Virus record (IMG/VR): IMGVR_UViG_3300034151_000064
Coordinates: 1 to 24,214 of that record
From: a virus
Lineage: Duplodnaviria > Caudoviricetes
Direction: 5' to 3' (one strand)
Length of the DNA: 24,214 nucleotides
Part shown: positions 1,537 through 20,318 of the stretch, in pieces
Layout of the letters: each line of letters starts with the position of its first letter
How positions within the stretch are numbered: position 1 is the stretch's first letter
Translations under genes and position numbers: made by a program
Notes under the pieces: model-generated
Told to the model about the DNA's origin: nothing
Seen by the model: the letters and a program-made list of their open reading frames with translations, nothing else
Databases searched by the model: none

Positions 1537-3081
1537 GTGATGCCGCGGGCCATTTCCACCGCCACACAAAAAGTAAAGCTGATTAATCAGCTAACACACA
1601 CCAAGGGCCCTTTTGCGGGCCAACCCTTCCGCTTGCGACGATGGCAAGAGCAACGCATTATCCGCCCCTTATTCGCCACGGATCCCGCCACGGGTTTACG
1701 CACCAAGCGGATGTGCTTATTAATGCTGCCGCGGAAAAATGGAAAAAGCGAATTAGCCGCCGCCCTGGCCATAGACGGATTGTTATTCGACGGGGAAATC
1801 GGGGCGGAAGTGTATTCCGCCGCCGCGGATAAAGATCAAGCGGGCTTGGTGTTTAACGTGGCGGCTCAGATGATCCGCAACGATCCCGAGCTCTATGCCG
1901 CATGTGAAATCGTAGATAGCCAAAAGCGAATTGTCCACCGAGCCACGGGCTCATTTTATCGGGCGATTAGTGCAGAGGCATATTCCAAACACGGGTTTTC
2001 GGCGAGTCGGATCATTTATGACGAGCTCCATTGTGCGCCCACTCGGGAATTGTGGGATGTGCTCACAAGCTCCACGGGGGCCCGAGCCCAACCACTTGTT
2101 ATCGGTATTTCCACCGCGGGTTTTGATCGTCACTCTATTTTGTGGGAGCTCTACACCCACGCGAAAAAAGTAGCGGAGCACCCCGACTTAGATCCGTCAT
2201 TCCTGCCGATTATTTATGAAGCCCCCACCGATGCGGATTGGACAAGCGAAAAAGTGTGGCGGGCATGTAATCCCGCTCTTGGGGATTTCCGATCACTGGA
2301 AGAGATGCGGATCGCGTGTGCCCGAGCTCGGGAAATTCCCGCCCAAGAGAACACATTCCGCCGTTTGTATTTGAACCAATGGACAGAGCAAGCAAGCCGA
2401 TGGATCACGATGCCCGCATGGGATGGGTGCCAGGGCGAAATCGAGCGGGCCACGCTCAAAGGGCGGCGGTGCTATGTGGGGCTCGATTTGTCCACCACGA
2501 CGGACCTTACCGCGGCGGTGGCGGTATTCCCGAGCTCGGATGGCTTTGACGTATTAGCCCACTTTTTCATGCCCGCCGAGCGGATCCCGCTCCGAGTCAC
2601 ACGGGATCGTGTGCCATACGATCAATGGGTGAAAGAGGGGTGGCTTACCGCGATCCCTGGCCCCGTGATCGATTACGAGCGGGTAAGGGCGGTGCTCCAA
2701 GGGTGGGATCAGGAATTTGACGTAAAGATCCTGGCATACGATCCGTGGAATGCCACCGATCTGATTTCCCGCTTAGAAAAAGATGATGGCTTCACGTGCG
2801 TGAAAGTGCGCCAGGGCTTTGCCAGTCTCACCGCCCCGAGTAAAGCATTTGAAACCGCGGTGCTCTCCAAGCGGCTCCACCATAATGGCGATCCCGTGCT
2901 CCGTTGGAATGTCGCTAACGTGAGCGTGGAAACCGATGATGTCGGGAATATCCGCCCGAGTAAGAAAGCCAGCACGGAGCGGATCGACGGGGTGATCGGG
3001 CTCATCCTGGCCATTGATGCCATGGATCGCCACGATCACACCCCGCCGCCGTCCTATCAGATGATGGTGTTTGGGGCATGA
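1537..3081 (+). CDS. terL: Terminase large subunit (Terminase_1 / HK97-like)
   Basis: Walker A LPRKNGKS, Walker B RIIYDELH, motif III ISTAG, nuclease motifs GLDLS, YDPWNA and ERIDG; start is GTG 1537 or ATG 1540. Confidence 0.97.
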   Translation: MMPRAISTATQKVKLINQLTHTKGPFAGQPFRLRRWQEQRIIRPLFATDPATGLRTKRMCLLMLPRKNGKSELAAALAIDGLLFDGEIGAEVYSAAADKDQAGLVFNVAAQMIRNDPELYAACEIVDSQKRIVHRATGSFYRAISAEAYSKHGFSASRIIYDELHCAPTRELWDVLTSSTGARAQPLVIGISTAGFDRHSILWELYTHAKKVAEHPDLDPSFLPIIYEAPTDADWTSEKVWRACNPALGDFRSLEEMRIACARAREIPAQENTFRRLYLNQWTEQASRWITMPAWDGCQGEIERATLKGRRCYVGLDLSTTTDLTAAVAVFPSSDGFDVLAHFFMPAERIPLRVTRDRVPYDQWVKEGWLTAIPGPVIDYERVRAVLQGWDQEFDVKILAYDPWNATDLISRLEKDDGFTCVKVRQGFASLTAPSKAFETAVLSKRLHHNGDPVLRWNVANVSVETDDVGNIRPSKKASTERIDGVIGLILAIDAMDRHDHTPPPSYQMMVFGA

Positions 3082-3266
3082 AGCGATCACGTGGACGCCC
3101 ACCGCTGGATCCCACGGATCGATCCGTCAAACTCTGTATTACCTTACCGCTCCGCCAATTTGACGGCTACTGTAGTAAAGCCTTACGGGAAGCCGTGAGT
3201 ATTCCCGAGATCATCCGCCGAGAGCTCCGCGGGAATAAAGCACTACAAATTACCCGCCCCAAGTAA
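3078..3266 (+). CDS. Small ribbon-helix-helix (CopG/Arc-like) DNA-binding protein
   Basis: ATGA overlap with terL; basic RGRPP arm, beta-strand VKLCITLP, then helices ending SIPEIIRREL. Confidence 0.6.
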   Translation: MKRSRGRPPLDPTDRSVKLCITLPLRQFDGYCSKALREAVSIPEIIRRELRGNKALQITRPK

Positions 3267-14785: not shown

Positions 14786-14994
14786 CACCCGCCCCGCTCG
14801 GGCCCAGGGCGGATGTGCTTCTCGCGGTGATCGTGGAAGGGATCGCCCACGGCGGGATCCCGCTCAATAGCATGGAGGATGTAGCCGCCCTGTATGCGTG
14901 GCTTACCGTGATCGTGCCCACCCTGGCCCCGCCACCCGCGGCCCACGAGTTCCCGCCGCCCGCTCGACGCTACCCTAAAATTACGCAAGATTAA
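14782..14994 (+). CDS. Hypothetical protein
   Basis: GTGA overlap with the preceding stop; 70 aa; ends just before the att region. Confidence 0.5.
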   Translation: MTPAPLGPRADVLLAVIVEGIAHGGIPLNSMEDVAALYAWLTVIVPTLAPPPAAHEFPPPARRYPKITQD

Positions 14995-15009
14995 GCCCAA
15001 TACCCCTTC

Positions 15010-15252
15010 CGTGCGTGACACTCGTGCGTGACAAATAGGTTAAAGCCCATAAACGCTATGGCTTACGGATGTGGCTATCGGCCTTCTAAGCCCAAACCCT
15101 CACCCCATAAAACTTCCACTAAGTCACTGAAAACACGCCACTTACGGCTCACGGGCTCGAGCCAGTGTCACGCACACCCCTAAACAAGATTATGCAAATT
15201 TACTAACAATTACGCACGGCGGGATCACCGTGCGTGACACCGTGCGTGACAC
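15010..15252. other. attP: Putative attP site (arm-type repeats flanking a tRNA-derived core)
   Basis: Intergenic and lower in GC. GTGCGTGACA-containing repeats at 15010-15021, 15023-15034, 15229-15240, 15241-15252 (direct) and 15165-15175 (inverted); core ATCGGCCTTCTAAGCC at 15077-15092. Confidence 0.8.
15077..15092 (+). other. att core resembling a tRNA-Arg(UCU) anticodon stem-loop
   Basis: GGC-CTTCTAA-GCC: 7-nt loop CT-TCT-AA with dyad flanks, the layout used by tyrosine integrases that cross over in tRNA anticodon loops. Confidence 0.7.
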
Positions 15253-15254
15253 TA

Positions 15255-15284
15255 TGGACAAAGCTAAGCCGCTTGGGTTATACT
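15255..15284 (+). promoter_or_regulatory. Sigma70-type promoter with an operator-like dyad in the spacer
   Basis: TGGACA (15255-15260)-N18-TATACT (15279-15284); the spacer holds CTAAGC-C-GCTTGG; 8-bp hairpin 15289-15310 and AGGAG RBS follow. Confidence 0.65.
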
Positions 15285-15327
15285 CCGTGAGTGGGCAATA
15301 CCGCCCACTCTGATAGGAGCGGCAAAC

Positions 15328-15708
15328 GTGAAGCGGAAATCGGTAGTAGCGGAATACATGGCGGAAGTGGGGCGGCGGGGTGGGCGGGTGAGCTCGAAAG
15401 CCAAAGCCGCGGCGGCTCGGGCCAACGGTGCTAAGGGTGGACGCCCACGCAAGCCCGTGGTGGAGATCAAGATCCCCAATGGGTGGTTTCTCGTGGATCA
15501 CCGAGAGCGGGCACTACCCACCCCCGCGGTGCTCCGTGAGAATAAAAAACACGCATGGATCGCGGGGAACGATCCCGCCCTGGGTGAGCTCGTGGACGAT
15601 GCCCGCCATTACGCCCACGCCAACGGGCCCGATCAATGCCCCACTGGCTTGATTACATCCGCTCGGGCTCTCTTGCGGGCCCTAGCGGCGGCGGGGGTGG
15701 CGATATGA
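15328..15708 (+). CDS. Basic protein with an N-terminal GRRGG...AKAAAARANGAKGGRPRK putative DNA-binding motif
   Basis: AGGAG RBS before GTG; the motif is recurrent in small phage proteins and ends in an AT-hook-like GRPRK. Confidence 0.7.
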   Translation: MKRKSVVAEYMAEVGRRGGRVSSKAKAAAARANGAKGGRPRKPVVEIKIPNGWFLVDHRERALPTPAVLRENKKHAWIAGNDPALGELVDDARHYAHANGPDQCPTGLITSARALLRALAAAGVAI

Positions 15709-15848
15709 AGCTCACCCCGCGGGTATGCCGCTTTTGCGGGAAGCCCAAAGCCACGATCCCATTTCGCCAGGATGGTGGGGCTTTCTATGCTCACTTGTCG
15801 TGCTTCCGTAAATGGCGGGCCACCGCGGCGAAAGCGGGGGCCAAATGA
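15705..15848 (+). CDS. 47-aa putative zinc-finger protein (CxxC...HxxC)
   Basis: ATGA overlap gives start 15705; MKLTPRVCRFCGK...HLSCFRKW. Confidence 0.6.
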   Translation: MKLTPRVCRFCGKPKATIPFRQDGGAFYAHLSCFRKWRATAAKAGAK

Positions 15849-16231
15849 CGCGGGCGGAAGCGGATAAAAAGCTTAAACGGATTTTTGGCACCGCGGCGGC
15901 TTATCGGGTGGATCGTGGGGCTCGGGATCAGGATGAGCGGGAAGCGGCCCACGTGGAGCACATGAGCGTAAAAGCGGAATGGGAAGCCGCCAATAAAGCC
16001 CTAAGTGAGCGGGCGGCGGCTCTGGCGGCGGCGGATGTGGAATATCAGCGATTGAAAACCAAACGGGATGAGCTCCGAGCGGTGAAGGATCGATTATTCG
16101 GGGTGGTGCTCCACTACCGATTCACCGCGGGATATATGGCCCACGGATTCTTTCACGTGGAAGCCCAAGCGGATACCTGGGAGCAAGTCTTTGAAAAACT
16201 GAAAGAGAAATACCCCAACGGGAAGCGGTGA
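15845..16231 (+). CDS. Hypothetical coiled-coil protein
   Basis: ATGA overlap gives start 15845; 128 aa with a central Ala/Glu/Lys helix. Confidence 0.7.
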   Translation: MTRAEADKKLKRIFGTAAAYRVDRGARDQDEREAAHVEHMSVKAEWEAANKALSERAAALAAADVEYQRLKTKRDELRAVKDRLFGVVLHYRFTAGYMAHGFFHVEAQADTWEQVFEKLKEKYPNGKR

Positions 16232-16255
16232 GCTCGTGGCGGCGGTGGAAACGTC

Positions 16256-16290
16256 AAAGGGCCAGGGATTACAACCCCTGGCCTTTTTTC
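16256..16290. terminator. Intrinsic terminator, probably bidirectional
   Basis: Stem GGCCAGGG (16260-16267) / CCCTGGCC (16276-16283) with T6 on + and a short T tract on -; located where + and - operons converge. Confidence 0.8.
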
Positions 16291-16592
16291 TTTGCCGCTT
16301 CCAATTGATCAAAGCGGCGGATCCTTTTTTTCCGCTCAGGCGGGAGATTGCGGAACCACTCCCGCATTTCGCGGGCCCGCTCGTGCTTCCGCTCCCGCTC
16401 CGCCCGCTTAAGATTTCGCGTCCACATGGCCCACTTGGCGTGAAACTTTTTGATGTATGCCGCGGAGTGCTGATAACGGCGTGGCTCGGTTTTCAGCGGG
16501 AGATTGATTTCTAAATCCCTGGCACACCGTAAGAGCGTGGCACGAGTGGACGGGGCCCGAGCTCGGGAAGCCGCCGCCCGCCAAACGTCCAC
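16269..16592 (-). CDS. Basic hypothetical protein
   Basis: Arg/Lys-rich; I place the start at GTG 16592 (GGGGG upstream) because the longer 16706 start runs through the tRNA. Confidence 0.5.
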   Translation of the reverse strand: MDVWRAAASRARAPSTRATLLRCARDLEINLPLKTEPRRYQHSAAYIKKFHAKWAMWTRNLKRAERERKHERAREMREWFRNLPPERKKRIRRFDQLEAAKKKGQGL

Positions 16593-16612
16593 GAGCCCCC
16601 ACAAATGAGCAA

Positions 16613-16688
16613 TGGTGATCGGGGCGGGATTTGAACCCGCGGCCCCCGCGTTAGAAGCGCGGTGCTCTATCCCCTGAGCTACCCGATC
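16613..16688 (-). tRNA. tRNA-Arg, anticodon UCU
   Basis: 76-nt cloverleaf GATCGGG TA GCTC AGGGGATA GAGC A CCGCG CTTCTAA CGCGG GGGCC GCGGG TTCAAAT CCCGC CCCGATC A CCA; all four stems pair perfectly, CCA is encoded, and the Arg identity base A20 is present. Confidence 0.96.
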
Positions 16689-16873
16689 AAGTCGATTTTT
16701 CGCCACCGATACATACCAGACACAAACTCCATAGGCATGGGATCAAACGATCCCGCCCGCACCGCTTTGAGAATTTCCCGCTCTTCCATACGGAGGATAG
16801 CCGCCACTTCCGGCAAGATGAGCACCACGGGCCACGTGGTGGGATCGCGTGGATCAAACTCAGGATTATTCAT
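16679..16873 (-). CDS. Excisionase/Cox-like winged-HTH protein
   Basis: PVVLILPEVAAILRMEEREILKAVRAGSF.P....YRW.K.DL fits the HTH_17/MerR-like Xis pattern. Confidence 0.7.
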   Translation of the reverse strand: MNNPEFDPRDPTTWPVVLILPEVAAILRMEEREILKAVRAGSFDPMPMEFVSGMYRWRKIDLIG

Positions 16874-17123
16874 AGATCCCCCGCCGATGGTGTAAGCGGA
16901 TTTGTTGGCGGATCGTGAGCGTGAAGTGGCGGATCATCCCTTCCGCATTCTCGGGATGATCACGGGTGCATCCCGCCAGGATCCGCCCGAGCTCATACGA
17001 GAGTGCCGCCGCAATTTCCGCGGCCCCGTCGTGGGCGAAATTCTCCACAAGCCACACCATGAGCCGCTCTTGAATTTCCACCGCCCGCTTGGCATCAATG
17101 GGATCATCCACGGGGTGTGTCAC
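16866..17123 (-). CDS. Hypothetical protein
   Basis: 85 aa; overlaps both neighbours in a coupled - strand operon. Confidence 0.65.
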   Translation of the reverse strand: MTHPVDDPIDAKRAVEIQERLMVWLVENFAHDGAAEIAAALSYELGRILAGCTRDHPENAEGMIRHFTLTIRQQIRLHHRRGIYE

Positions 17124-17668
17124 TTTTCCGCGGTTTGCTCGGCATCTTTCGGGTTGATGTAAAAGGGTTTCGCGGTGCGAATATACCCGCCACCCTTCCG
17201 TTTGAGATAGCCCCGCCGCACATAGGGCCCCATGTGTCGCACATTCACCCCGAGCTCTACGGGGATAAACGGATCCTTGAGATCAAATTTAGCCAGGGCT
17301 TCCGCGGTGCGTTGGCGTTGTGCTAAGTATTTCGCCAGATCTCCAGGGCTCTTCCGCTTTTTCTGTTTCTTTCCTGGCTTGGTGCCCGCTCGGTATTTTG
17401 CCTTACGGGCCCGCCATAGGGCCCGCCGCCGCTTTTCATCCATCGCCACCGCCGCCCGCTCGATAGTCGGAAGCCCATTCCCGTTACCGTTAGAGCTCTC
17501 GTGGTGTTTTTGAAATGCGGCGGATTTACGATCCCCACCCACCCGCGGCACGGGTGATGCTGACAGCAACGCCATGGTGGCCCGCACCGTGGCCGCGGCA
17601 TTCTCGTGGTAAGCCAAGAGCCGTAATAGACGATCACTCACTGTGGGATTAGCTGGCATGGGCTCCAC
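17120..17668 (-). CDS. Basic hypothetical protein, possible C-terminal DNA-binding domain
   Basis: 182 aa, Lys/Arg-rich; GGAG RBS; C-terminal YVRRGYLKRKGGGYIRT resembles a wHTH wing. Confidence 0.65.
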   Translation of the reverse strand: MEPMPANPTVSDRLLRLLAYHENAAATVRATMALLSASPVPRVGGDRKSAAFQKHHESSNGNGNGLPTIERAAVAMDEKRRRALWRARKAKYRAGTKPGKKQKKRKSPGDLAKYLAQRQRTAEALAKFDLKDPFIPVELGVNVRHMGPYVRRGYLKRKGGGYIRTAKPFYINPKDAEQTAEK

Positions 17669-18143
17669 TCCGTTTTTCTAAACGCTCCACACGGATTGTG
17701 TGGGCGATATTGCGGCGGGCGGCTTTACGGGCTTTGGTGTCTTTCTTTTCTTTGGCCCGCTCGGTTTCGTCTTTGTGCTTGAGGGATGCAAACGTGATCG
17801 GGCTTCCGCGGTGCTTCGCAAACCAATTGAGTAGTGGGGCATCCCCGCCAAGCCCTTTGACTTCAAAAGCCGCCCCGAGCACCGCCAGGGATACCGCCCC
17901 GAGCCGCGGGATCGCCAGTCGATCAGGGTGGATGTGCTCAAACACTTCGCGGGTATCTTTCACCCGTAATTCTGTATTGAGCAATTTGGAGAGATTAGCC
18001 GCGGCGGTGAAATTAAAACACGCCACTTTCGAGAGTGCCGAGCGGTCAAAGAGATCCCGCCCGATACGGAGCACCGCGGTTTTTTGCCGCTCCGTGATAT
18101 ACGCCACCACCGATTTGCCGAGAATCGCCGCGGAGAGATCCAT
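17649..18143 (-). CDS. Hypothetical protein
   Basis: 164 aa; GGGGGTAAGG upstream of the ATG; IPRLGAVSL could be an HhH-like motif. Confidence 0.7.
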   Translation of the reverse strand: MDLSAAILGKSVVAYITERQKTAVLRIGRDLFDRSALSKVACFNFTAAANLSKLLNTELRVKDTREVFEHIHPDRLAIPRLGAVSLAVLGAAFEVKGLGGDAPLLNWFAKHRGSPITFASLKHKDETERAKEKKDTKARKAARRNIAHTIRVERLEKRSGAHAS

Positions 18144-18205: not shown

Positions 18206-19462
18206 TTAGCCCGTCTTTTTCACGAGAGCCAGGGCCCCGCGGCCCCGCTTTTTTGTGGGTGTGGGTGGTGGGGCCCCGTGTAAGTGCTCGTGCATTTTGG
18301 CCATGGCCGCGGCCACCCGCTCCGATACCGCGGCACCCGTATAGCGTTTAGTGGTTTCCAAGTTTGAATGCTGCATGAGCTCCGCCACCGCACGGAGATC
18401 CCCCGTGACTTTGTAAGCAAATGTCCCAAACGAGTGGCGGAGATCATACGGGTGGCATTTAGGCGGGAGCACATGGAGCCATGCGTCTAAGGGAGCTCGA
18501 TCCCCTGAGTGCATGGCTTCCAACGTGAGCCGCTCGGTAATGCGGCGGATCGCACCCTTCCACGCTTTCCCCATGGAAGAGCGGGAAAACTTTTTACCCC
18601 ACAAATTGGCCGCACCGAAAGCCACAAAAGCCGCCACCGCTTCCGGAAAGAGCGGGCCCACCCATACACCGTCTGAGCCCTCACCCTTCCGCCGCGGGGT
18701 GAGAAAGACACGCCCACCGAGCATGGAGACACCATCGGGAGAAAGACACCCCAAGAGATCCACATGGCCCTTTTCGAGCCGCTCCAATTGGGCGGGCGGA
18801 GCTCCCGTATACGCCATGAGCGTTAGGCGGATCTTGGTATGGCTCACGGTGCCACGCTTCCCAAACCGAGCCGCCCGCCCACGATCAGGAATAGCCGCCA
18901 GGATGAGCCGCACCGCTTCCATAGGGATGCCCCGTTGGAGCGGCTTGGGCTCACGGAGTTTTTTAATCCGATCCGTGGGGTGCGGGGTATCTTCCCCGTC
19001 CATTAGATCGTAAAAGCGGCGGAGTGCCCGCACACGGTGATTCACGCTTGAAGCCGCCGCCCCGCCGTCTTTCCATGCGGTGCGCTGTTTACGTATGTCT
19101 CTACGGGTGAGCTCGTGGCGGTGGAGCGATCCGAGTGGGCTCTCGATCCAATGCTGCATAAGCGAAGTGAAATCGGCCCGCTGGCCCTCTTCGATCATCG
19201 TGAGCATTTCCGCCACATCGGCGGCTATGGTGCCCTCACGAGCCGCCCGCGGGAGCTCTTCCAATAATTCCGCTTCCGCTCGGGCTTGCCACGCTTTCAT
19301 TTTGTCCACGTGGGTGGAGAGCGGAAATTTGGTGCTCCGCGGGATCTCTTCCGTGGATTTCGATCCCTTCCGTTTTGTCACGTAGTAGAAATTTTTCTCT
19401 CGATAGATCCCTGGGGCCCCAGGAACGGGGATCCGCCGCTTCGTAATCTTGTGACGTTTCAT
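18206..19462 (-). CDS. int: Tyrosine recombinase / integrase with an atypical box I
   Basis: 418 aa; AASSVNHRVRALRRFY core-binding region; box II YDLRHSFG...VAELMQHSNLETTKRY; box I reads YTGAPPAQL instead of TGxRxxEL. Confidence 0.92.
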   Translation of the reverse strand: MKRHKITKRRIPVPGAPGIYREKNFYYVTKRKGSKSTEEIPRSTKFPLSTHVDKMKAWQARAEAELLEELPRAAREGTIAADVAEMLTMIEEGQRADFTSLMQHWIESPLGSLHRHELTRRDIRKQRTAWKDGGAAASSVNHRVRALRRFYDLMDGEDTPHPTDRIKKLREPKPLQRGIPMEAVRLILAAIPDRGRAARFGKRGTVSHTKIRLTLMAYTGAPPAQLERLEKGHVDLLGCLSPDGVSMLGGRVFLTPRRKGEGSDGVWVGPLFPEAVAAFVAFGAANLWGKKFSRSSMGKAWKGAIRRITERLTLEAMHSGDRAPLDAWLHVLPPKCHPYDLRHSFGTFAYKVTGDLRAVAELMQHSNLETTKRYTGAAVSERVAAAMAKMHEHLHGAPPPTPTKKRGRGALALVKKTG

Positions 19463-19853: not shown

Positions 19854-20318
19854 GTGCAAGCCGCCGACCTAAGCCCCGCCGTGGTTCCCTGGCGGCGGAG
19901 CTTTCTTACTAGTCAGGGATGGCCCGCTCTTCCCGCTCGGGGGTGTCCTTTGGTGAAACGTCGCCGCCCCGCCGCCGCTACTTCCGCCGCCGCTTCGCTG
20001 TCTGATGTGATTGCCACCCGCACCGTGGCCGCGATCCCTGTGCTCTTAACGCTCCGCGATATGGCCGCGATCTATCGCGTCAGCGTGGGCACCATCCGCC
20101 GCGGGCTCCAAGCGGGCACATTCCGCCCCATCCCCTGGGATAAATACCCGTATCGGTGGAACCCGTCCGATGTGGAGCGGGATTTAGAAACCCGCCGAGA
20201 TCTCCGCATGAGAGATCATGGCCGCTTCAATAAACACCGTTTGAGATCCGCCAAGGTCGAAAGCCCGAGCAAGCGGGGGAATGGGAAAAAGCGATCCGGC
20301 GGGAGCTCCACGCATTAG
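19854..20318 (+). CDS. Excisionase/Cox-like HTH DNA-binding protein
   Basis: LLTLRDMAAIYRVSVGTIRRGLQAGTF.P....YRW; the true start may be GTG 19953; first gene of the rightward early operon. Confidence 0.75.
   Translation: MQAADLSPAVVPWRRSFLTSQGWPALPARGCPLVKRRRPAAATSAAASLSDVIATRTVAAIPVLLTLRDMAAIYRVSVGTIRRGLQAGTFRPIPWDKYPYRWNPSDVERDLETRRDLRMRDHGRFNKHRLRSAKVESPSKRGNGKKRSGGSSTH

Follow-up and report, generated by a model that had tools for sequence, protein, structure and literature searches.

The phage sequence IMGVR_UViG_3300034151_000064, analysed over its whole length of 24,214 bp (the window), carries genes for a terminase, a capsid-protease, a portal, tail proteins, a tyrosine integrase and a divergent excisionase-like protein. 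Its phage attachment site (attP) and its tRNA gene point, with high probability, to tRNA-dependent lysogeny, in which the site would break the single tRNA-Arg(UCU) gene of the host and a whole tRNA carried by the phage would stand in for it. Such a destroy-and-replace arrangement had been put forward in a preliminary description of this DNA, and it is supported, at the level of sequence, by a match to host genes, by the failure of the modelled junctions and by co-variation among relatives. The site is made up of the following features, in which canonical relatives are those whose attP holds the 3' half of a tRNA gene.

15010..15033, + strand: pair of arm-type repeats left of the core (its short side), exact copies of one 11-mer at 15010 and 15023
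15077..15092, + strand: likely attP core, 16 bp (ATCGGC-CTTCTAA-GCC), identical in sequence to the tRNA-Arg(UCU) anticodon arm in Vicinamibacteria
15083-15089, + strand: 7-nt loop CTTCTAA, presumed crossover region, its place being deduced from homologous canonical attPs
15093..15125, + strand: non-tRNA DNA where canonical relatives hold the variable loop, T-arm and acceptor 3' strand (attP alignment)
15166..15176, - strand: inverted arm-type repeat with 1 mismatch, partly conserved in 7 aligned attPs
15229..15251, + strand: pair of arm-type repeats right of the core (its long side), two further exact copies of that 11-mer at 15229 and 15241, a conserved block in the attP alignment

The core, with its TCT anticodon, is present as it had been described, reaching 6 bp to the left and 3 bp to the right of the 7-nt loop. 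It is followed by no T-arm or acceptor, in agreement with the preliminary description, and is thus not an attP of the canonical 3'-half type; neither is it of the 5'-half type found in loci L286 and L048, as no acceptor 5' strand and D-arm precede it. The earlier claim that a 5' half is lacking therefore stands, and only the weak "GCTTA..GGAT echo", read as a tRNA 5' remnant, has to be abandoned, because the TTACGGATG stretch also precedes the core in canonical L060, L065 and L006 and is thus a feature of the att region common to canonical attPs.

The stretch 15010-15251 matches attP sites of related phages in arm repeats and spacing. The att regions of six relatives align over their full length with 15000-15265, sharing the arm pairs and the position of the loop, and the left arm pair is equal in position and nearly equal in sequence in the canonical attP of L001. 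In five of these six regions the loop is followed by the T-arm and acceptor strand of a tRNA, whereas in this phage and in L107 unrelated DNA of equal length takes their place, so that the arm spacing is retained. The 7-mer CTTCTAA occurs only twice in the window, in the core and in the tRNA, a count that does not by itself exceed chance (two copies were reached in 25 of 100 shuffles). A 16-mer from 50 host tRNAs, on the other hand, appeared in none of 2000 mononucleotide shuffles of the 245-bp arm-bounded stretch, and in 6 of 200 such shuffles of the whole window. Phage sequence is listed for 24 sequencing runs, all of them sediment, freshwater sediment or soil metagenomes, of which seven contain at least half of its words (the search covered DNA data, and no RNA run is among the 24); in the contigs of all four runs examined, one of them possibly the source sample, the core is unchanged, and it is therefore no assembly artefact.

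The second element of the proposal is the tRNA gene, the only one in the window.

16613..16688, - strand: whole tRNA-Arg(UCU) with encoded CCA, A20 and A73, terminal feature of the leftward integrase gene run (Rfam RF00005, orthologues)

A whole tRNA-Arg(UCU) about 1.5 kb from the core, with the same loop CTTCTAA and another stem, had been announced, and it was recovered by Rfam RF00005 with 72.1 bits and the stem CCGCG/CGCGG. The term "recoded" applied to it was overstated, the scaffold being of a phage lineage and unlike the host gene, of which it is at most a putative derivative.

ARAGORN labels this gene tRNA-Pyl(CUA), by way of a fold shifted by one base that contains a G.G mismatch; the CGCG-rich anticodon stem permits this CUA register, by which the program is misled. 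The computed energies of the two registers are nearly equal (-34.6 vs -34.7 kcal/mol) and the fold of lowest energy lacks a cloverleaf shape, so that energy does not settle the register. The label and the energies would both suit an active shifted register, with the tRNA being an amber (CUA) suppressor or Pyl-like; this is nevertheless extremely improbable, taking into account that the mismatch is required, that Rfam aligns the UCU register, that compensatory stem changes in the orthologues fit the same register, and that the long ORFs (open reading frames) of the phage are open in genetic code 11, three of them ending in TAG. In the four tRNA orthologues, all variation in paired stems is confined to the anticodon stem. 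A tRNA-Pyl has its CUA anticodon in a well-paired stem, a short D-loop and linker, no TTC, and G73. The phage gene, with a 2-nt linker, an 8-nt D-loop, TTC and the Arg-type A20 and A73, shows none of this, and the Pyl identity was rejected. An annotation based on ARAGORN would label the tRNA as Pyl and hide its link to attP.

The codon AGA is not enriched in the phage, with about 1.8 per 1000 codons against 1.5 in host-like ORFs, both figures being approximate (the count includes at least one out-of-frame ORF, 15847-16231, and the host-like set consists of ORFs near islands that pass a filter for high GC at third codon positions). Supplementation of lytic translation by the tRNA is therefore unlikely.

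The target of the core points to a host that is likely a member of the Vicinamibacteria (Acidobacteriota), a class abundant in soil and sediment. The exact 16-bp core occurs in 51 of 201 genomes of the class, compared with 16 of 251 genomes of the phylum; other phyla were sampled with five genomes. At 30 of 32 core sites inspected the context is tRNA-Arg(UCU), with 29 whole genes and one truncated by the end of its contig; of the other two sites, one is an isolated 3' half next to an integrase, and the last fits neither description. Host tRNA-Arg(UCU) genes with the TCGGC/GCC stem, for which a search had been proposed, thus exist in this class. The pattern of a whole tRNA-Arg(UCU) was found in 185 of the 201 class genomes, in a single copy in 181 of these and in two copies in four, and the 3' halves in the canonical attPs of L012, L021 and L022 are identical over 38 nt to host tRNA-Arg(UCU) genes. 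Within the class to which a Vicinamibacterales genome belongs, 31 of 401 genomes contain the integrase family itself, often adjoining tRNA-Arg or tRNA-Val genes, and of the 12 genome loci whose integrases match best, 10 are labelled Acidobacteria or Vicinamibacteria, at identities of 28-41%.

The same tRNA gene is probably also visited by other elements. Its 5' halves, followed by foreign DNA, were seen at L198:3060-3100, L198:5710-5750, L175 and L202:3035 (genomes G178 and G002). L198 (G178) and L202 (G002) were not counted as support, a whole copy being kept in both genomes, and the layout of loci of this type makes it likely that they are islands which duplicate the 5' part at this shared hot spot. 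In contig G142:C1 (L192-L194, L268, L272, L274-L276), eight scattered 3' parts of tRNA-Arg(UCU) were noticed together with palindrome-extended copies of the anticodon arm, and there the site seems to have been spread by another mobile element.

What integration would leave behind was modelled at 26 host loci, following the earlier suggestion that reconstructed left and right prophage junctions (attL and attR) be examined for a functional tRNA. In silico, ARAGORN calls a tRNA in all 26 intact bacterial sites (attB), in none of the modelled attL and in two of the modelled attR. At best, 4 of the 7 acceptor positions pair in the modelled attR of 24 hosts, and 5 in that of the other two, and positions 8-9 read GG instead of UA, an outcome consistent with the predicted loss of the gene. 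The two attR calls, together with the second gene copy in four of 185 genomes and a host that is itself inferred, would favour a milder version, in which attR is functional or the host has a spare, the phage tRNA being helpful and not required. This version is very improbable: the calls carry little weight because ARAGORN also calls the bare 3' halves in canonical attPs, the attR folds combine poor acceptor pairing with a G replacing U8 and no known promoter lies there, and a single copy is the state of 181 genomes. The tRNA disrupted according to the preferred reading, tRNA-dependent lysogeny, would thus be non-redundant, its essentiality being taken from decoding rules. AGA is read only by the UCU anticodon, and strict dependence is therefore expected here. 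U34 isoacceptors are usually able to read G-ending codons, and dependence may be looser in the relatives with CCU and CAC anticodons described below.

The relatives provide the third line of evidence. They were fetched from viral, metagenome and genome collections with an alignment built from 50 of the 117 integrase homologues (a single-sequence integrase scan of viral contigs gave no locus), and the viral and metagenome loci were grouped at 90% integrase identity into 99 clusters, with nine cluster states set by hand. In 59 clusters attP holds a tRNA 3' half and there is no whole tRNA in the DNA fetched, which in 46 of the 59 covers at least 2 kb downstream. In five clusters a short core lies between the arms and a whole tRNA is carried, in all five with the anticodon of the core: UCU in this phage, CCU in L107, L073 and L089, and Val-CAC in L076. 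The remaining clusters comprise one (L098) with a tRNA and the attP cut off, two with a 5' half, four beside a host-type tRNA, and 28, mostly short fragments, with nothing. The check on relatives asked for in the preliminary description has thus given a matching tRNA in five of five cases of a short core that agrees with the known tRNA loop of a host. The association of a whole tRNA with the attP state gives a Fisher p of 4e-7, kinship being ignored, and of 7e-5 when five distant records lacking tRNAs are counted against it. A single clade of the four short-core integrases with long matches is rejected (AU, approximately unbiased, test, p 4.6e-7, on a tree of 36 chosen rows, quick trees being used throughout), which suggests that the combination of short core and whole tRNA arose separately in at least four lineages.

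The closest sisters of the phage are P0002, P0003 and P0005, matched at 88-98% by the fragments L107 and L098. On these fragments the tRNA scaffold of the phage recurs with changes nearly confined to the anticodon arm, where the anticodon is CCU, and the core of L107 is of CCU type; therefore, target and spare have changed together within one clade. In matched pairs such as L004 and L107, the left sides of attP are nearly identical, and the tRNA 3' half is kept in one and not in the other.

It might also be considered that the tRNA counters a host anticodon nuclease, the match of its isotype with attP being secondary. Anticodon nucleases cut in the anticodon loop. In the phage tRNA this loop is identical to that of the host, which speaks against such a role, and the anticodon stem is unlike that of the host, which would speak for it. 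Also against it, the isotype tracks the core over three anticodons, and whole tRNAs are absent from the DNA fetched for all 59 canonical clusters, which should face the same defences. Thus, although the possibility is raised in the discussion of PMC10865867, we give a defensive explanation of the isotype match a very small probability; a role against nucleases and a role in lysogeny are not mutually exclusive.

Several further loci of the family deserve mention. By eye, the sequence on the 3' side of the short Val core at L076:2460-2510 (- strand) resembles a decayed tRNA 3' half, and L076 is a possible intermediate in which the tRNA was gained before the decay of attP. At L286:11100-11145 (Arg-UCU) and in the arm-bounded region 2451-2676 of L048 (Arg-UCG), attP holds a tRNA 5' half instead of a 3' half, which is a third strategy within the integrase family. 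The distant members L026, L029, L036, L108, L281 and L282 lack a tRNA half (five were searched as whole records, L108 being left out), and for the hairpin core with a TTGCGGA loop of L036 and L108 no such Arg(GCG)-type tRNA was found in 61 class genomes. A short core-like site in L070 was not counted, as it lies outside any arms. Pattern searches of viral contigs added no locus to the comparison: the phage-type tRNA gave no match with the first pattern and two with a second, the core followed by a base other than G gave nine matches, none of them with this integrase and four in large tRNA arrays, and a broad tRNA-Arg pattern, with 120 loci, was rejected as too unspecific.

A phage that carries a copy of its own target loop might be expected to raise the question of self-integration, and the preliminary description had proposed that the changed anticodon stem removes the core-type binding sites. 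It is plausible that the phage tRNA escapes being a target in this way. Its loop is identical to the core and seven of the ten flanking bases differ; its GCG/CGC flank is found in none of 54 canonical cores; and in each of the four short-core relatives, comparison of the phage tRNA with the core of the same phage shows one or two changed loop bases and changes at four to seven of the ten flanking bases. Base differences between phage tRNA and core would also be expected from a foreign origin of the tRNA. That phage tRNA copies could themselves be hit has been raised as speculation (PMC10865867).

The recombination genes are the following.

18206..19462, - strand: tyrosine integrase of 418 aa, its N-terminus predicted to form a three-strand/one-helix arm-binding domain (phrog_1, E 5e-25; Pfam; structure model)
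20028..20318, + strand: excisionase-like helix-turn-helix gene, divergent from int (Pfam HTH_17; phrog_66, E 4.5e-7)

The structure model of the integrase has a pLDDT (predicted local distance difference test) of 89 and a three-strand/one-helix N-terminus, and attP lies 3 kb from int. No tblastn match to the integrase was found among 50,697 GenBank phages. Its active site departs from the canonical RKHRH-Y: after alignment to XerD, the box-I Arg is missing and the first His of H-x-L-R-H is a Tyr across the whole family (position 222 is Arg in 0 of 50 aligned members, position 339 Tyr in 50 of 50). R228, R257, K259, R342, H343, H365 and Y374 are invariant in the 50 sequences, and the first three are candidate catalytic residues, R228 and R257 being those that might supply the displaced Arg. 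Comparable departures have been reported: in IntDes, described from Desulfovibrio only, the first Arg is shifted and the first His replaced by Tyr, and in IntCTnDOT the first Arg is replaced by one lying further downstream (PMC8138268). The integrase resembles the former in both traits and the latter in the displaced Arg; the likeness to IntDes is a resemblance of motifs to its published description.

Several observations weigh against tRNA-dependent lysogeny in this phage. The contigs of four of the 24 runs contain no host-phage junction, which is weak evidence because contigs drop rare forms. No repressor was identified by Pfam and PHROG searches of the window proteins, and the integrase has no Arg at the usual box-I position. 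These three points together would favour a phage that no longer integrates, with a decayed attP, a lytic or extrachromosomal life and a tRNA that aids lytic translation. We regard this as very unlikely, since the arms are perfect and their spacing is kept, int and the excisionase-like gene are intact, the box-I Arg is missing family-wide, canonical members and genome-borne copies included, AGA is rare in the phage and the presence of the tRNA follows the state of attP. Moreover, a variant contig compared over 14824-15131 shows 15 differences, and the 13 of these that are listed, all of them substitutions, lie at or before position 14994, outside the att site. Further points against tRNA-dependent lysogeny are the two modelled attR that ARAGORN calls tRNA-Arg, and the indirect assignment of the host, the genome-borne integrases being only 28-41% identical. 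No lysogen with a phage-type tRNA was found in 401 class genomes, where a motif for the tRNA start gave seven matches, none of them a tRNA. Searches for a sigma-70 promoter of the leftward run or of the tRNA gave none. Phylogenetically independent pairs, although agreeing in four of four cases, give p = 0.125 (33 of the 36 rows), and in five distant relatives (28-37% identity; completeness of 90% or more in four) the whole record contains no tRNA and no 3' half; these may target non-tRNA sites or be counter-examples. Finally, the avoidance of self-targeting would depend on the flanks alone, because the loop of the phage tRNA, that is, the 7-bp overlap, is identical to the core.

In tRNA-dependent lysogeny as proposed here, crossover by the integrase would take place within the anticodon loop of the one tRNA-Arg(UCU) gene of the host, and the insertion would leave this gene as two dead halves. 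The phage tRNA would be expressed from the leftward int transcript and charged by the arginyl-tRNA synthetase of the host, restoring AGA decoding, so that lysogens would need the tRNA of the prophage, while its altered anticodon stem would prevent its use as an integration target.

The region around the tRNA contains further features.

15252..16237, + strand: small-ORF accessory block between attP and the tRNA (ORF calls)
16256..16287, + strand: terminator-like hairpin separating the rightward block from the leftward tRNA (consensus match only)
16679..18143, - strand: four small ORFs of unassigned function between int and the tRNA, on the same strand as both (ORF calls)

In one contig of run X6, the 986-bp block 15252-16237 is exchanged for 34 bp (joint 15251-16238), which brings attP near the tRNA. 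The hairpin is graded as a consensus match only, because four terminator-like hairpins were found in the region and 3.2 would be expected. The four small ORFs have no PHROG match, and the three tested have none in Pfam. By eye, the stop codon of the ORF upstream of the tRNA overlaps or sits inside the tRNA 5' end (window 16679-16688; L107:558-563), and at L098:355-370 the ORF in this position is int itself; 5' processing of the tRNA could remove the stop codon from the message of the overlapping ORF. Between the terminase and capsid genes, at 3078-3266 (+ strand), lies a small basic ORF that looks, by eye, like a DNA-binding protein.

tRNA-dependent lysogeny has been proven by genetics in the actinobacteriophages Fionnbharth (K4), LeBron (L1), Cain (K6), Gaia (X) and Mollymur (DL) (Guerrero-Bustamante and Hatfull 2024, PMC10865867). 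The likeness to the phage described here is extensive: a tyrosine integrase with arm sites, a core (of 8-17 bp in their case) in a single-copy tRNA that is in no instance rebuilt, a phage tRNA that shares the isotype but not the sequence of the host tRNA and is often transcribed leftward, and a mixture of canonical and short-core types among relatives, of repeated origin (PMC10865867). The isotypes are different, Lys-UUU, Ile2-CAU and Leu-CAA in the actinobacteriophages and Arg-UCU, Arg-CCU and Val-CAC here, as are the likely host phylum, the 3-kb distance of attP from int and the basis of the claim, since lysogeny is here deduced from sequence (PMC10865867). All those criteria of tRNA-dependent lysogeny in the available text of that paper that can be tested in this way appear to be shared by the present phage. 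Outside the Actinobacteria, Lo5R7ANS-like prophages of Sinorhizobium meliloti break tRNA-Leu(UAG) by mid-gene insertion and carry a same-isotype tRNA (PMC11476347). They are thus alike in having a broken central-tRNA target and a tRNA of their own, and differ in being integrated, with real junctions, and in host phylum and isotype (PMC11476347). The strategy has also been suggested for Lactobacillus Lj965 (as cited in PMC10865867), and phiLM21-like prophages, according to the available part of PMC12429752, do not show it. Closer at hand, canonical relatives (L001, L060, L012, L022 and others) share the arm repeats, an arm spacing of about 218 bp, the position of the loop and the integrase motifs, some of them having the identical TCGGC-CTTCTAA-GCC core; they differ in that their attP holds a tRNA 3' half, and the DNA fetched for them contains no whole tRNA.

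The available portion of a paper on Acidobacteriota viruses makes no mention of attP (PMC11924767), and no report of the strategy for Acidobacteriota or for tRNA-Arg was found in the main texts of open-licence papers and preprints, bearing in mind that the supplements of PMC10865867 may list more isotypes. The mechanism itself is already published, which limits the surprise; what is new here is the Arg isotype, the likely Acidobacteriota host and the anticodon that follows the core. The frequency of the strategy outside the Actinobacteria and its evolution from ordinary integration were left open in 2024 (PMC10865867).

In this respect, the integrase family extends tRNA-dependent lysogeny to arginine and valine tRNAs and likely to the Vicinamibacteria, and it offers matched attP pairs, at least four apparently separate origins and a tRNA anticodon that follows the target. 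A broader proposal, to which we assign an even chance, is that this one family, with its unusual active site, has switched repeatedly among three means of surviving its insertion into an anticodon loop, namely a 3' half, a 5' half and a whole spare tRNA, with one scaffold retuned between UCU and CCU together with the core, and its anticodon arm kept different against self-integration. If this were true, the family would constitute a natural series for the origin of tRNA-dependent lysogeny and for the avoidance of self-targeting. For the bacterium that harbours such a phage, the consequence would be that the lysogen needs its prophage for the decoding of AGA.

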